From a phage, in sequence record PZ379184.1: a DNA stretch of 39,711 nucleotides; one strand, given 5' to 3'. A model generated the notes under the pieces. It did not search any database. It had not been told where the DNA came from and saw only the letters and a list, made by a program, of their open reading frames with translations. The stretch's first letter is position 1, and each line of letters opens with the position of its first letter. The position numbers and the translations under genes are program-made. Positions 2,875 to 39,608 of the stretch are shown piece by piece.

Positions 2875-5556
2875 ATGAGCGTCATCTCTATTGATAAACA
2901 CGACTTCTCTGATGTGTCGAACGCCATTGAGCCGTTTAACCTGCTGGCCGACCACTACGGGCAAGACCTTGCAGTCAAACAGCTTCAGCTTGAGCATGAG
3001 GCATATACAGAAGGCGAGCGACGTTTCATCAAGAACCTTGAGCGCCAGACCGAGCGCGGGGAACTGGCAGACAATCAGGTCGCCAAGCCTTTGATGCAGA
3101 CTCTGGTCCCTAAGATTGCGCAAGCCGTCAGGGAGTGGCACGAAGGCCTAGACGGGAAGCTGTCAACCTCGCGTCCTAGCGTAGCGTTCACCATGTTGAG
3201 CACTGAAGAGAAGGCCGTAAAGGACCGCTCTATGCGCATCCCCTGTGAGTCCGCTGCGGTTATCATACTGAAGGTCATACTCTCCAAGCTGGTCAAGCCT
3301 GAAGGGATACCGATTACACCGATGGCCTCCGCGATAGGTCGCACACTTGAGGACGAAATCCGCTTCGGTCGCATCCGTGACAAAGAGAAGGAGCACTTCA
3401 AGAAGGCGATAGCTGAGAACCTGAACAAGCGAGCTGGGGCATCCTACAAGAAAGCATACATGCAAGCGGTCGAGGCGTCCATGCTGGAGCAAGGCCAACT
3501 GGAAGATGCATGGGGGACTTGGAGTCCTACAGAGGCTGTCCACGTTGGCATCAAGATGCTCGAGATTGTCATCCAGTCAACACAACTGGTCGAGCTTAAG
3601 CGGTACGGTGCTGGTAATGCAGCGGCTGACGTAGAGATGGCCCACCTGTCAGACTTCTGGGTCAAGAAGATGGCACAACGAGGATTCAGCCTTGCGGGTA
3701 TCGCTCCAGTCTACCAGCCTTGCGTCGTTCCACCTAAGCCGTGGACTGGTGTCGTAGGTGGTGGGTACTGGGCCAAAGGTCGCAGACCGTTACCATTGAT
3801 TCGCTTAGGGTCTAAGTCTGCGGTAGCACGTTATGAAGACGTATACATGCCTGAAGTCTATGACGCTGTGAACATCATTCAGAATACACCTTGGAAAGTT
3901 AACAAGAAGGTATTGGACGTGGTGAACATGGTCGAGAAGCTGAACAACACGCCTATTGATGACATCCCTCAGTTGGAACCGCTGAAGCCTGAGGACTATG
4001 CTGGTGAAACCGAGGAGGAACTCAAGGCATGGAAGAAGGCTGCTGCTGGTATCTATCGCCGCGAGAAGGCCAGACAGTCACGCAGATTGTCCATGAGTTT
4101 CATCGTATCACAGGCCAACAAGTTCTCACAGTTTAAGGCCATCTGGTTCCCGTACAACATGGATTGGCGAGGTCGTGTCTACGCTGTCCCGATGTTCAAC
4201 CCTCAGGGTAACGACATGCAGAAGGGTCTACTGACTCTGGCGGTCGGAAAGCCTATCGGGGCGGATGGTTTCAAATGGCTTAAAGTCCACACCGCCAACT
4301 GCGCGGGTGTCGATAAGGTAACCTTTGAGGAGCGTATCAAATGGGTGGAAGACAATCACGAGAACATTCTGGCAGCAGCCAAATCACCGATGGACAGCAT
4401 CGAGTGGTGGGGGAGTATGGACAGCCCCTTCTGCTTCCTAGCGGCTTGCTTCGAGTATTCTGGGGTGATGAACCATGGCTTGACCTACAATTGCTCACTT
4501 CCGATTGCCTTCGACGGCTCGTGTTCGGGGATTCAGCACTTCAGCGCGATGCTGAGGGACCACGTAGGCGGACATGCAGTGAACTTAACGCCGTCTGGTC
4601 AGGTGCAGGACATCTACCGTATAGTCTCAGACCGTGTGTCAGACCAGTTGAAAGAGCTATTACTGAGCGGTACGGACGACGAGCTGGTGACCGTAGAGGA
4701 CAAGAAGACTGGGGAAATCAGCGAACGCCTGAAGCTTGGGACCAAGAGTCTTGCGCGTCAGTGGCTGCAATTCGGTATGTCTCGCTCGGTCACTAAGCGC
4801 TCGGTCATGACTCTGGCCTACGGGTCGAAAGAGTATGGGTTCGCCGACCAAGTGTTCGAAGACACCGTGATGCCAGCGATTGACTCCGGTAAGGGAGCAA
4901 TGTTCACCGAGCCAAGCCAAGCGTCTCGCTTCATGGCTAAGATGATTTGGGAAGCTGTGAGTGTGACAGTAGTTGCTGCGGTTGACGCGATGAAGTGGCT
5001 TCAAGGTGCCGCCAAGCTGCTGGCTGCTGAAGTGAAGGACAAGAAGACTGGTGAAATCCTGAAGCCATGCCTTCCGGTACACTGGGTCACACCTGATGGG
5101 TTCCCGGTCTGGCAGGAATACCGCAAGAAGGATACCACTCGTCTGAACCTGATGTTCTTAGGGTCCTTCAACCTTCAACCTACGGTCAACAAAGGTACGA
5201 AGAAAGAGCTGGACAAGCACAAGCAGGAGTCAGGCATTAGCCCGAACTTCGTCCACTCACAAGATGGTAGCCACCTCCGCAAGACTGTAGTCCACACTCA
5301 CCGAAAGTATGGCGTGATGTCATTCGCAGTGATTCACGATAGCTTCGGGACCATCCCGGCTGACGCTGAGTATCTGTTCCGTGGCGTCCGTGAGACGATG
5401 GTAGAGACTTACCGCGATAACGATGTGCTGCTTGACTTCTACGAGCAGTTTGAATACCAGCTTCATGAAAGTCAGCGCGACAAGTTGCCTGAGCTTCCGA
5501 AGAAAGGTAAACTGAATATCGAAGACATCTTGTCTTCAGACTTTGCATTCGCTTAA
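2875..5556 (+). CDS. 1: DNA-directed RNA polymerase, single subunit (T7 gp1 homolog, 893 aa)
   Basis: Collinear similarity to recalled T7 RNAP (FSDxxxxIEPFNLLADHYG, CVVPPKPWTG, WFPYNMDWRGRVYAV, HDSFGT, C-terminal SDFAFA). Confidence 0.97.
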   Translation: MSVISIDKHDFSDVSNAIEPFNLLADHYGQDLAVKQLQLEHEAYTEGERRFIKNLERQTERGELADNQVAKPLMQTLVPKIAQAVREWHEGLDGKLSTSRPSVAFTMLSTEEKAVKDRSMRIPCESAAVIILKVILSKLVKPEGIPITPMASAIGRTLEDEIRFGRIRDKEKEHFKKAIAENLNKRAGASYKKAYMQAVEASMLEQGQLEDAWGTWSPTEAVHVGIKMLEIVIQSTQLVELKRYGAGNAAADVEMAHLSDFWVKKMAQRGFSLAGIAPVYQPCVVPPKPWTGVVGGGYWAKGRRPLPLIRLGSKSAVARYEDVYMPEVYDAVNIIQNTPWKVNKKVLDVVNMVEKLNNTPIDDIPQLEPLKPEDYAGETEEELKAWKKAAAGIYRREKARQSRRLSMSFIVSQANKFSQFKAIWFPYNMDWRGRVYAVPMFNPQGNDMQKGLLTLAVGKPIGADGFKWLKVHTANCAGVDKVTFEERIKWVEDNHENILAAAKSPMDSIEWWGSMDSPFCFLAACFEYSGVMNHGLTYNCSLPIAFDGSCSGIQHFSAMLRDHVGGHAVNLTPSGQVQDIYRIVSDRVSDQLKELLLSGTDDELVTVEDKKTGEISERLKLGTKSLARQWLQFGMSRSVTKRSVMTLAYGSKEYGFADQVFEDTVMPAIDSGKGAMFTEPSQASRFMAKMIWEAVSVTVVAAVDAMKWLQGAAKLLAAEVKDKKTGEILKPCLPVHWVTPDGFPVWQEYRKKDTTRLNLMFLGSFNLQPTVNKGTKKELDKHKQESGISPNFVHSQDGSHLRKTVVHTHRKYGVMSFAVIHDSFGTIPADAEYLFRGVRETMVETYRDNDVLLDFYEQFEYQLHESQRDKLPELPKKGKLNIEDILSSDFAFA

Positions 5557-33702: not shown

Positions 33703-35976
33703 ATGTCCACGATTACACAATTCCCTTCAGGAAACACTCAGTACAGGATTGAGTTCGACTACCTAGCCAGAACGTTTGTTGTTGTTACTCTGGTGAATAG
33801 CTCTAACCCTACCCTGAACCGTGTACTGGAAGTTGGTAGAGATTACCGATTCATTAATCCAACGGTGATTGAGATGTTGATTGACCAATCGGGTTTCGAC
33901 ATCGTTCGTATTCACCGTCAGACTGGAACTGACTTAGTGGTAGACTTCAGGAATGGCTCAGTATTGACAGCTAGTGACCTGACCAATGCAGAGCTTCAGG
34001 CTATCCATATTGCAGAAGAAGGTCGAGACCAAACTGTTGACTTAGCGAAGGAATATGCCGATGCTGCTGGTAGCTCTGCTGACAACGCTAAGGATAGCGA
34101 GGACGAAGCACGACGAATCGCTGATAGTATCAAGGCATCTGGTCTAATTGGCTATATTACCCGTCGCTCCTTCGAGAAAGGCTTCAACGTTACAACATGG
34201 AACGAGGTCCTGCTATGGGAAGAGGATGGTGGGTATTACCGCTGGGATGGTGCTCTTCCAAAGAACGTTCCTGTCGGTTCGACCCCTGAAGCTACTGGAG
34301 GTGTTGGTCTGGGTGCATGGGTTAGCGTTGGTGATGCGTCATTACTAGCAAGGCTAAAAAGCAATAGCGCTGGTGAGGGCGCCTCCCTTATTACATTTGA
34401 AAATGGCAATTCTGTTGAGAGTCTTTCCGACAGTGATGGTGCTAAAAACATAGGTAGTGGTGGGAGAAGTTTGCATGAACGTAATAATGATATTAAGCAT
34501 TCTGGGGATTTCCCTACCTTACAAGCTGCGATAGATTCATCGTTACCAAAAAATGACTTACTTATTTCCCCTGGTGAATATACTGAAAAAGTTACTATTG
34601 GTAACGCACAGTTAAAAGGCGTTGGTGGGGCTGCAGTACTAAAAACACCAGCAGACTTTACAAACACTGTTCAGGTTAATTCATCTACACCCCATTGGCA
34701 ATTCCGCCATAGTGGTGGTTTTGCTATAGATGGCTCTGGAACAATCGGGAGCGCAGGCATTAGTTTTGACCCGTCAGACCAATATTCTGGGCGCCATAAT
34801 TTTAGTGATGTATACATCCACAACATCAATAAGGCCCTTCAGAAGCCTTCCGGGAACATCGGTAATACATGGAGAAATATTGGGATATCTACGTGTGATT
34901 GGGGTTACTGGGCGCAGTCTGCTTCTGAGATGCACTTAGGCACCGATACCCTTCAGAACATGCACTTTGATGGCATTAGTACTTACTGCGTTTATATGAA
35001 TGCTACAGTAGGTGCAGTGCCGGGTACATTCGGAGGTGGGGTAGGCGGTTGGTGGATTAAGGATAGTATCATGGAATCCTCTGGCGGCGGTGGCATCTAT
35101 CTCAAGAACAAGGCCGGAGACTGTCCTTCTGCTCCGTGCGGTGTATCCAATGTATGGGTGGAAGCTATCGCTACTACCCCAGCTGTTAATGTAGATGGCG
35201 TAGCTCAGAAGCCTCGTGTGCTTAAGCTCATTGACACCAGTATCTTCTTTGCAGAGTACACGTATCTGAACAACGTAGAGCTTCAGAACTCCAACCTTGT
35301 TGCTTATGGATGTCGTGTAGATAACTCAGATGGACACATGGATATCTCTGTAGATGCCAGCAGCAGCTTTGTGGCTGAGCAATTGTACCTGAACGGTAGT
35401 TCTGGCAAGGATGTAATGGTGCGCTCTGTAGCGGCCCAGACGGGTATGATTGGGCAGAGCTGGACACCTAATATGAGTATGCGTGGTTACCTGCCGGAAG
35501 GATACATCTATCGAGTATCTGGTAATAAGCTAGTAGCTAAACCATTCGATAGCGGTACTGCTGTGTTCGGCGGTACGGCAAGCAGTTCTGGCAGCTTGCA
35601 CCCACAAGGACAGTTATCCCAGAACTGCATGTATTTTGAATTCCAAGGTGCTGCTGAGTTTGAACTTACTGATGCAGCATGGCAGGTAACCTCAGGTAAT
35701 TGGTACGTATGGGGCATTAGCACTGAGCTGCTTCAGGGAACTCCTGCGAGCTTCCGTATTGGTGGGGATATCGGCGTAGGTGAAGTCTTTACTAAGCAGG
35801 GTCAGTGGGTGAGTACCTTCGGCGTAGCTCAAGCAAGTGCTTCAGGTGCAGTGAACCTCAGACTAAGTACTGCTGCAGGTGGCGTAGTAATGCGCTTAGC
35901 TGACTACTTTGTTGCTGAGTTCGCTACTCAGGCAGAGGCTATGCGCTTCGTGAACAGTAGGCGTGCTCTGCGTTAA
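33703..35976 (+). CDS. 17: Tail fibre / tailspike protein (gp17 homolog); N-terminal adaptor plus divergent C-terminal receptor-binding domain
   Basis: N-terminal 150 aa share FDYLARTFVVVTL, DYRF, LVDF.NGS.L.A.DL, IHIAEE with recalled T7 gp17. The C-terminal 600 aa are Gly/Ser/Asn-rich with no T7 counterpart. Confidence 0.88.
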   Translation: MSTITQFPSGNTQYRIEFDYLARTFVVVTLVNSSNPTLNRVLEVGRDYRFINPTVIEMLIDQSGFDIVRIHRQTGTDLVVDFRNGSVLTASDLTNAELQAIHIAEEGRDQTVDLAKEYADAAGSSADNAKDSEDEARRIADSIKASGLIGYITRRSFEKGFNVTTWNEVLLWEEDGGYYRWDGALPKNVPVGSTPEATGGVGLGAWVSVGDASLLARLKSNSAGEGASLITFENGNSVESLSDSDGAKNIGSGGRSLHERNNDIKHSGDFPTLQAAIDSSLPKNDLLISPGEYTEKVTIGNAQLKGVGGAAVLKTPADFTNTVQVNSSTPHWQFRHSGGFAIDGSGTIGSAGISFDPSDQYSGRHNFSDVYIHNINKALQKPSGNIGNTWRNIGISTCDWGYWAQSASEMHLGTDTLQNMHFDGISTYCVYMNATVGAVPGTFGGGVGGWWIKDSIMESSGGGGIYLKNKAGDCPSAPCGVSNVWVEAIATTPAVNVDGVAQKPRVLKLIDTSIFFAEYTYLNNVELQNSNLVAYGCRVDNSDGHMDISVDASSSFVAEQLYLNGSSGKDVMVRSVAAQTGMIGQSWTPNMSMRGYLPEGYIYRVSGNKLVAKPFDSGTAVFGGTASSSGSLHPQGQLSQNCMYFEFQGAAEFELTDAAWQVTSGNWYVWGISTELLQGTPASFRIGGDIGVGEVFTKQGQWVSTFGVAQASASGAVNLRLSTAAGGVVMRLADYFVAEFATQAEAMRFVNSRRALR

Positions 35977-36087
35977 GTGTACTGGAATTACTATTGGTGG
36001 TTCAGGTGCGTGAGTAGTTACTTTATCGCCGACCAACGTATGTAACAACTTTGGGTCACGGACGACCCGCTTTAAACTGGAGGTTTT

Positions 36088-36282
36088 ATGATTGAGTTAG
36101 ACTTCAAGAATGAGGTCCTTAAAGCCTCTCCTATCGTCGGGACCGCTGCGGCTGATGGTGCCAGTCGGTTCTTCTTCGGACTTACACTGAACGAATGGTT
36201 CTACGTTGCAGCTATCGCGTACACCGTTGTCCAGATTGGTGTGCTAGTCTACAAAACGATTAAAGGAGGTGGTAAAACATGA
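36088..36282 (+). CDS. 17.5: Holin (T7 gp17.5 homolog)
   Basis: LDFKNEVLKASPIVGT and FFFGLTLNEWFYVAAIAYTVVQIG match recalled T7 gp17.5. Confidence 0.9.
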   Translation: MIELDFKNEVLKASPIVGTAAADGASRFFFGLTLNEWFYVAAIAYTVVQIGVLVYKTIKGGGKT

Positions 36283-37093: not shown

Positions 37094-38853
37094 GTAAAGA
37101 TTTAGTGGCGCGTCAGGCGCTAATGACTGCCCGTATGAAGGCAGACTTCGTGTTCTTCCTGTTCGTCCTGTGGAAAGCTCTGTCACTACCAGTCCCGACT
37201 CGCTGTCAGATTGACATGGCGAAGAAACTATCGGCTGGGGACAACAGGCGTTTCATCCTACAGGCGTTCCGTGGTATCGGGAAGTCATTCATTACGTGCG
37301 CATTCGTGGTATGGAAACTGTGGAACAACCCAGACTTGAAGTTCATGATTGTGTCGGCCTCAAAGGAACGAGCCGATGCGAACTCCATCTTCATCAAGCG
37401 AATCATCGACCTCATGCCTCAGCTTCAGGAACTTAAACCTAAGCAGGGGCAGCGAGATGCGGTTATCAGCTTCGACGTTGGACCAGCCAAGCCAGATCAC
37501 TCACCTTCGGTTAAGTCCGTTGGTATCACTGGTCAGTTGACTGGTAGTCGTGCTGACATCCTGATTGCCGATGACGTGGAGGTTCCGAACAACTCAGCGA
37601 CTCAGGCTGCACGAGACCGTCTGTCAGAGCTTGTGAAAGAGTTCGACGCTATCCTGAAGCCGGGAGGTACAATCATCTATCTGGGTACTCCTCAGAACGA
37701 GATGACCTTGTATCGTGAGCTGGAAGGCCGAGGATACACCACTACTATCTGGCCTGCTCGTTATCCACGCGATAAGAAGGACTGGCAGTCTTACGGCGAC
37801 CGTCTGGCTCCTATGCTTCAGGCAGAGCTGGAAGAGGACCCTGAGTCCTTCTACTGGCGTCCGACCGATGAAGTACGATTCGATGATACGGACCTGAAGG
37901 AACGTGAGCTGTCCTATGGTAAAGCTGGATTCGCTCTACAGTTCATGCTTAACCCAAACCTGAGTGATGCTGAGAAGTACCCTCTGAAGCTCCGTGACCT
38001 TATCGTAGCCGACTTGGACCCAGCGTCTAGCCCAATGGTATACCAATGGCTTCCTAACCCTCAGAACAAGCGTGAGGACGTTCCTAACGTTGGACTCATG
38101 GGTGACTCATACCACACGTATCAGACTGTAGGTTCTGCCTTCAGCTCATACACCCAGAAGATTCTGGTCATTGACCCTAGTGGTCGTGGTAAGGATGAAA
38201 CTGGTTATGCGGTACTGTACCAGCTCAACGGCTACATCTTCGCTATGGAAGTTGGTGGTATGCGTGGTGGCTATGAAGACTCTACGCTGGAAGCATTGGC
38301 TAAGATTGGTCGTAAGTGGAAGGTCAACGAATACGTCATTGAGGGTAACTTCGGCGATGGTATGTACCTTGAGCTATTCAAGCCTGTAGCGGCCCGTATT
38401 CATCCTGCTGCTGTAACTGAAGTGAAGAGTAAGGGTCAGAAGGAACTCCGCATCTGTGACGTTCTGGAGCCTATCATGGGGTCTCACCGACTTATCGTCA
38501 ACGCTGCTGCTATAGTCCAAGACTACCAGACAGCCTCTGACAAGGATGGAGTGCGTAACCCTATCTACTCTCTCTTCTATCAGATGACCCGTATCTCTCG
38601 TGAACGTGGAGCCTTGGCACACGATGACCGACTTGATGCGCTGGCTATCGGTGTACAGTTCTTCGTTGAGTCTATGGCTAAGGATGCCAACAAAGGCGAA
38701 CGTGAAGTCACTGAGGAGTGGCTGGAGGAACAGATGGAGAACCCACGGAAAGGCTTCGAGTCCATCCACACTGAGTTCTGGGACAATGGGGTCCGGGTGA
38801 CTCACGATACGGACGACGGGCTGGGACTAGGGTCCTACGTTACGTTCCACTAG
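37090..38853 (+). CDS. 19: Terminase large subunit (T7 gp19 homolog); probable TTG start
   Basis: Collinear with recalled T7 gp19 ([106 protein letters not shown]). SD GGAGG 7 nt before TTG 37090. Confidence 0.95.
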
Positions 38854-38947
38854 CTGAATGAATAACTATAGGCGAAAACTGAGTTAATAAGCAGTTAGTA
38901 ACCTATAGTTACTACCAGTCTAACCTACTGTTTTACAAGGAGTTTGG

Positions 38948-39545: not shown

Positions 39546-39608
39546 TCTCACAGTTCAAGAACCTCAAGTCTCCCCATAGGCCCTCTTTCAGTCCAGACAA
39601 AGGCCCTA
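39546..39608. repeat. Right copy of the terminal repeat, starting TCTCACAGT as in T7; only 63 bp of it present here
   Basis: 39558-39608 equals 1-51; TCTCACAGTTCA matches the recalled first bases of the T7 genome (TCTCACAGTGTA). Confidence 0.7.

Follow-up and report, generated by a model that had tools for sequence, protein, structure and literature searches.

The tail gene of the T7-like coliphage analysed here raises the question of which of its parts belong to the phage's own lineage, where the others came from and what they recognize on the host. The window, by which we mean the whole 39.7-kb stretch of DNA that was analysed, spans the entire genome of a T7-like phage belonging to Kayfunavirus. 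Its positions 10000-33700 share 97.5% identity with Kayfunavirus LI10P1 over 23.7 kb, and many other members show 94-95% identity. A 51-nt exact direct repeat (1-51 and 39558-39608), whose two copies are followed by unlike sequences, probably belongs to a terminal-repeat region of the T7 type in an assembly with an arbitrary start. The gene of interest (33703-35976) is a single open reading frame on the plus strand, as are all features given below unless stated otherwise, and encodes a 757-aa tailspike, gp17. It is flanked by an internal virion protein gene and a holin gene, which is the position of gene 17 in T7. The protein matched phrog_27367 ('tail fiber protein') over its full length (aa 1-756, 1044.8 bits), and this similarity assigns it to the family of LM33_P1-type tail fibres. 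The exact 757-aa protein was not found among a collection of 15 billion proteins, and megablast found no phage record matching the gene over more than about 73% of its length, indicating a new combination of a thoroughly documented kind. Exchange of receptor modules is a well-known route of host change in phages, and we consider it likely that gp17 is a Kayfunavirus tailspike in which the standard attachment end has been joined to an exchanged beta-helix receptor module.

A preliminary description of this DNA, made from its letters alone, had assigned the first 150 residues to the T7 gp17 attachment domain, had placed a junction at residue 150 and had proposed that the remainder, devoid of T7 similarity, was acquired horizontally. 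The nature of the N-terminus was borne out: the T7 gp17-type tail-attachment (anchor) domain PF03906 covers aa 10-115 (33730-34047; 59.4 bits, above the Pfam gathering cut-off of 25.2), and the solved T7 gp17 structure PDB 7boz aligned to aa 6-115 only (E 3e-16), the T7 gp17 chains 7boz and 8dsp giving E values of 1e-16 to 1e-17 against the N-terminus. Also as proposed, the similarity to T7 ended with the anchor, since the 553-aa T7 gp17 chain showed no alignment of its shaft, pyramid or tip to gp17. The position of the junction had to be revised. A second conserved domain, missed at the time, follows the anchor: Tail_spike_N of the CBA120 TSP1/Gp66 type (PF18668) was found at aa 155-211 (34165-34335; 69.1 bits, gathering cut-off 25), and matches to CBA120 TSP1, TSP3 and TSP4 in the PDB reached aa 151-226. 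Another solved tail spike, PDB 9vvr, covered aa 1-221 with few substitutions (E 4e-130), and nucleotides 1-640 of the gene were 94-95% identical, by megablast, to many Kayfunavirus records that have unrelated C-termini. Identity to Kayfunavirus is 96-98% up to 34245 and about 82% from there to 34343, so that the two-domain adaptor (anchor plus Tail_spike_N) extends to about aa 182-214 rather than to aa 150.

The sequence behind this adaptor has relatives in several groups of phages. Homologues of aa 211-757 were found behind three types of adaptor, namely PF03906 plus PF18668 in Kayfunavirus (e.g. P0022), PF18668 alone in proteins of Kagunavirus length (661 aa) and in a Kuravirus-like contig, and the P22 head-binding domain PF09008 in prophage-like contigs; the module was present in Kuravirus, Kagunavirus and Kayfunavirus records. 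The closest relative, P0001 (91% amino acid identity), is encoded by L004, a 69.5-kb Kuravirus-like contig of Hadza gut-metagenome origin. It differs from gp17 in having an adaptor made of Tail_spike_N only, on a contig that carries SU10-type portal, adaptor and tail genes. The tail fibre protein of the Kuravirus ES17 (QPL11059.1) is 86% identical to aa 211-757 of gp17 in its C-terminal 548 residues, but these are preceded by an unrelated N-terminal part of 473 residues and are borne by a 75-kb Kuravirus backbone. LM33_P1 gp17 (YP_009324518.1) shares with the present protein the genus, the gene position, the order of domains and membership of phrog_27367; the two are 71% identical over their full length at the protein level and 94% identical at the DNA level over nucleotides 1-639 of the gene. 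Prophages carrying the module were sought in 5,426 complete E. coli genomes as a guide to the O-serotype of lysogens, but the only two matches were too distant (about 68% identity) to be informative. An 85.7%-identical copy of nucleotides 646-1905 of the gene was also seen inside a 2.7-kb open reading frame of MZ417522.1 ('UNVERIFIED: Mycolicibacterium phage J1'), a 25-kb record labelled as a Microviridae mycobacteriophage, and in all likelihood a chimera or a mislabelled assembly that includes coliphage DNA.

The ancestry of the gene was followed block by block, as DNA identity to the window, in the Kayfunavirus relatives PE3-1 and LI10P1, in LM33_P1, in the Hadza contig, in ES17 and in Golestan. 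The anchor block (33703-34245) was 96-98% identical to PE3-1 and LI10P1 and 96% to LM33_P1, against 32% for the Hadza contig, 38% for ES17 and 22% for Golestan. Block A (34423-34902) gave 37-39% with PE3-1 and LI10P1, 84% with LM33_P1, 95.8% with the Hadza contig, 82% with ES17 and 89% with Golestan. For block B (34903-35142) the values, in the same order, were 38%, 58%, 59%, 86% and 59%, and for block C (35143-35976) they were 39-40%, 57%, 96.5%, 86% and 58%. The linker that precedes block A (34344-34422) is unrelated to that of LM33_P1 (9%), which is the shorter of the two. These block identities show the gene to be a patchwork, with three or more ancestries represented downstream of the adaptor.

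The limits of the exchanged cassette were apparent from the same comparison, and we place them at about 34246/34343 on the left and at 36031, i.e. 55 nt past the stop codon, on the right. The left crossover zone (34246-34343) encodes the conserved in-frame motif YYRWDGALPKNVPVGSTPE..GG.GLGAWVSVGDA, which is common to Kayfunavirus and Kuravirus-like spikes. Aligned base by base, the window is identical to LI10P1 until about 34245 and then carries variants of the Hadza (Kuravirus-like) type; over the zone as a whole, identity amounts to about 82% with Kayfunavirus and 79% with the Hadza contig, and Kayfunavirus similarity stops entirely after ...GAWVSVGDA at 34343. On the right, a non-coding 3' tail (35977-36031) has moved with the module, as it is shared with the Hadza contig (89%) and falls below 48% in Kayfunavirus (38-47% for PE3-1 and LI10P1, 46% for LM33_P1; 47% for ES17 and 24% for Golestan). 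From 36032 onwards the window is 90-100% identical to Kayfunavirus relatives: in 36032-36100, PE3-1 and LI10P1 give 90-96% and LM33_P1 100%, versus 42% for the Hadza contig, 36% for ES17 and 29% for Golestan. No intrinsic terminator was found when one was sought in the 55-nt tail of the window. In ES17, the stop codon of the tail fibre gene is followed (L001, ~4640-4670) by a GC-rich hairpin of its own and then by T residues (CCCCGCTTAGGCGGGG). Neither the window nor the Hadza contig has a hairpin at this position, so the 3' ends of the cassette differ between carriers. Conserved recombination motifs on either side of the receptor-binding domain have been described for E. coli O-antigen tailspikes (PMC10408124, 2023), and the junctions mapped in gp17 fit this arrangement. 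Homology therefore strongly supports the horizontal gain of the host-recognition module that had been proposed, the flanks being 96-100% identical to Kayfunavirus.

Block B indicates that recombination also took place below the level of the domain, inside the beta-helix described below. This 240-nt tract (aa 401-480) is ES17-like, as opposed to 58-59% for the Hadza contig, LM33_P1 and Golestan, and the blocks on either side of it are Hadza-like, with 96% identity. It bears a 6-aa loop insertion, GAVPGT, that gp17 shares only with ES17; LM33_P1 and the Hadza protein are devoid of it.

Base composition had been among the grounds on which the foreign origin of the module was first suggested, and it was examined along the gene. 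The region 34340-34700 has a GC content of 0.41, which is in the lowest 0.25% of genome windows of the same size, and to this extent the module is AT-richer, as had been stated. This did not hold for the whole of 34150-35976, whose GC content of 0.481 lies at the 11th percentile, the gene's first 447 nt being lower (0.461). The lowest GC content at third codon positions (GC3) in any 125-codon window of the long plus-strand reading frames falls within codons 214-360 (0.248, compared with a mean of 0.548 and an sd of 0.077). GC3 is 0.437 in codons 1-213 (adaptor), 0.279 in codons 214-360 (34342-34782; linker, helix cap and first rungs) and 0.469 in codons 361-757, with a baseline of 0.558 in 16 other genes. 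Hence the contrast concerns a 147-codon patch rather than the adaptor versus the receptor module; the adaptor and most of the module are alike, both being modestly AT3-rich and below the baseline. The evidence for horizontal gain comes from homology and not from composition. The predicted richness in Gly, Ser, Asn and Thr was confirmed, these residues making up 35.1% of aa 151-757 compared with 24.1% in other open reading frames of at least 150 codons. Further short stretches of low GC content were seen at 38815-38875, ~17691 and ~1987 (0.36-0.41 in windows of 200-360 nt). An antisense open reading frame on the minus strand (34236-34667, 143 aa), beneath the AT3-rich patch, was rejected as a hidden gene and judged an artefact, because its frame is exactly complementary to that of gp17 and is interrupted by a stop in the LM33_P1 homologue.

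As an alternative to foreign origin, we considered that the AT3-rich patch might be due to chance, or to selection on how the linker and helix cap are translated or folded. The shift is synonymous, as GC content is normal at codon positions 1 and 2, and a GC3 dip is kept at the matching place in the homologues of ES17, LM33_P1 and Golestan, on backbones ranging from 0.42 to 0.52 in GC content; both observations would agree with selection. Yet most of the patch lies in block A, which shares 96% identity with a Kuravirus-like contig and 89% with a Kagunavirus, as expected for a recent exchange rather than for independent maintenance, and the GC3 of the patch (0.28) is nearer to that of the Kuravirus-like backbone (0.37) than to the Kayfunavirus baseline (0.56). 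Chance is excluded by the comparison with the baseline (binomial p 9e-12). We therefore regard selection or chance as a rather unlikely explanation of the patch and favour foreign origin. The GC content of the module (0.47-0.48) is above that of Kuravirus backbones (0.42) and below that of Kayfunavirus and Kagunavirus backbones (0.50-0.52), and this, together with the dip shared by the homologues, argues that composition travels with the module.

The fold of the receptor module was predicted with AlphaFold2, using aa 150-757 as a monomer and 30 homologues. The model had a mean pLDDT of 82.8, with low confidence in the linker (aa 210-259) and values mostly of 80-97 in the remainder. It comprises a right-handed parallel beta-helix at about aa 284-589 (34552-35469, approximate boundaries read from the model), which is the fold of the tailspike/depolymerase class, and a C-terminal CBM-like beta-sandwich domain at about aa 600-757 (35500-35973). 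A Foldseek search of the PDB returned phage tailspikes at a probability of 1.0, including CBA120 TSP4 (E 2.6e-14), TSP3 and TSP1, Klebsiella K2-2, Sf6 and HK620, and no T7 fibre domain was among the matches listed. The earlier suggestion of a beta-helix tailspike agrees with this predicted fold, and neither uniform composition nor a T7-like fold throughout the protein, which would have spoken against a mosaic fibre, was found. At the sequence level, the C-terminal 540 residues had no match among solved structures and no catalytic family in Pfam or NCBIfam. Solved tailspikes (CBA120 TSP2-4, Sf6, HK620, Klebsiella K2-2 and KP32gp38) have Tail_spike_N, a beta-helix and a beta-sandwich in common with gp17, but their helices are only 8-17% identical to its own, and their catalytic residues are not transferable to it. 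By its predicted fold, and presumably by its mode of action, gp17 belongs with the beta-helix tailspikes and not, beyond the anchor, with fibres of the T7 type.

These findings suggested the following model. Residues 1 to about 213 are the adaptor, conserved across the genus, by which the spike is attached to the tail. Behind it, a flexible linker, the beta-helix and the CBM-like beta-sandwich make up an exchangeable module. This module entered the Kayfunavirus backbone by recombination at the left and right sites mapped above, and the 240-nt tract of the helix was replaced in a later exchange. Judging from solved tailspikes, the spike is presumably a trimer, present in six copies per tail. 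Its helix would bind a polysaccharide of the host surface, in all probability the O25b O-antigen, and cleave it hydrolytically, allowing the virion to reach the outer membrane.

The O25b O-antigen is the probable receptor because relatives that bear the module have O25b-positive or ST131 strains as their isolation hosts. LM33_P1 is said to infect an ST131-O25b host. Both LM33_P1 and ES17 target ST131 strains (PMC7885116). Four Kayfunavirus and Kagunavirus matches (22664BS1, 22664BS2, 101118UKE1 and 101136BS1) come from the collection of PMC8614997, in which the isolation strains are, according to a table footnote, O25b-positive except UTI89. The specificity of gp17 could nevertheless differ from O25b, since LM33_P1 is only distantly similar in blocks B and C (57-58% DNA identity in the loop patch, distal helix and CBM-like domain; 57-59% over 34903-35976, with 35-82% amino acid identity per 40-residue window) and since gp17 carries the loop insertion.

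Concerning the chemistry of the reaction, beta-elimination requires a uronic acid, and the O25b repeat unit is not known to contain one, which favours a hydrolase over a lyase. Seven acidic residues of the helix (D415, D454, E487, D498, D511, D540 and D551) are invariant among 31 homologues and are candidate catalytic residues. We considered the possibility that the spike is instead a capsule (K-antigen) depolymerase or lyase, e.g. similar to K5 lyase, rather than an O-antigen tailspike. The matches that bring such enzymes to mind are generic for the pectin-lyase fold (8-16% identity), hydrolases score equally, and what the reported isolation hosts have in common is O25b or ST131; the apparent lack of uronic acid in the O25b repeat also disfavours a lyase. 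This makes a capsule enzyme very unlikely. We give hardly any credence to the idea that the module modifies the O-antigen, as an esterase or deacetylase, rather than cutting its backbone, as both similarities underlying this idea are weak and fold-generic and no esterase family was found with Pfam or NCBIfam.

A different possibility is that gp17 acts purely as an adhesin, so that its beta-helix and CBM-like domain would hold a glycan without cleaving it. This glycan could be the bacterial O-antigen or, as for ES17, host heparan sulfate or mucin. The ES17 protein was found to bind heparan sulfate, and depolymerase activity was not detected (PMC7885116); in the literature surveyed, no enzymatic activity was reported for any member of the module family. 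Against a mere adhesin stand the solved depolymerase tailspikes among the nearest structural matches and the invariance of the seven helix acids across the homologues, and we hold this reading to be improbable. The hydrolytic O-antigen tailspike is the reading that we favour. It is conceivable, though doubtful, that gp17 also binds mammalian heparan sulfate or mucin glycans as ES17 does, given its overall identity to the ES17 module and the loop insertion peculiar to the two proteins. If this were true, glycan binding would position the phage on the gut epithelium, the targeting of mucosa would move between phage families as a cassette, and the ES17-type 240-nt patch in the helix would be the mucosa-targeting determinant.

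Tailspike modules determine the host range of phages, and among E. coli, O25b (ST131) is a major lineage with multidrug resistance. The present gene represents no new type of system; it provides a clear-cut natural cassette exchange with both junctions placed within tens of bases and, in addition, a swap below the level of the domain. Both exchanges are useful guides for the engineering of host range in T7-like therapeutic phages.
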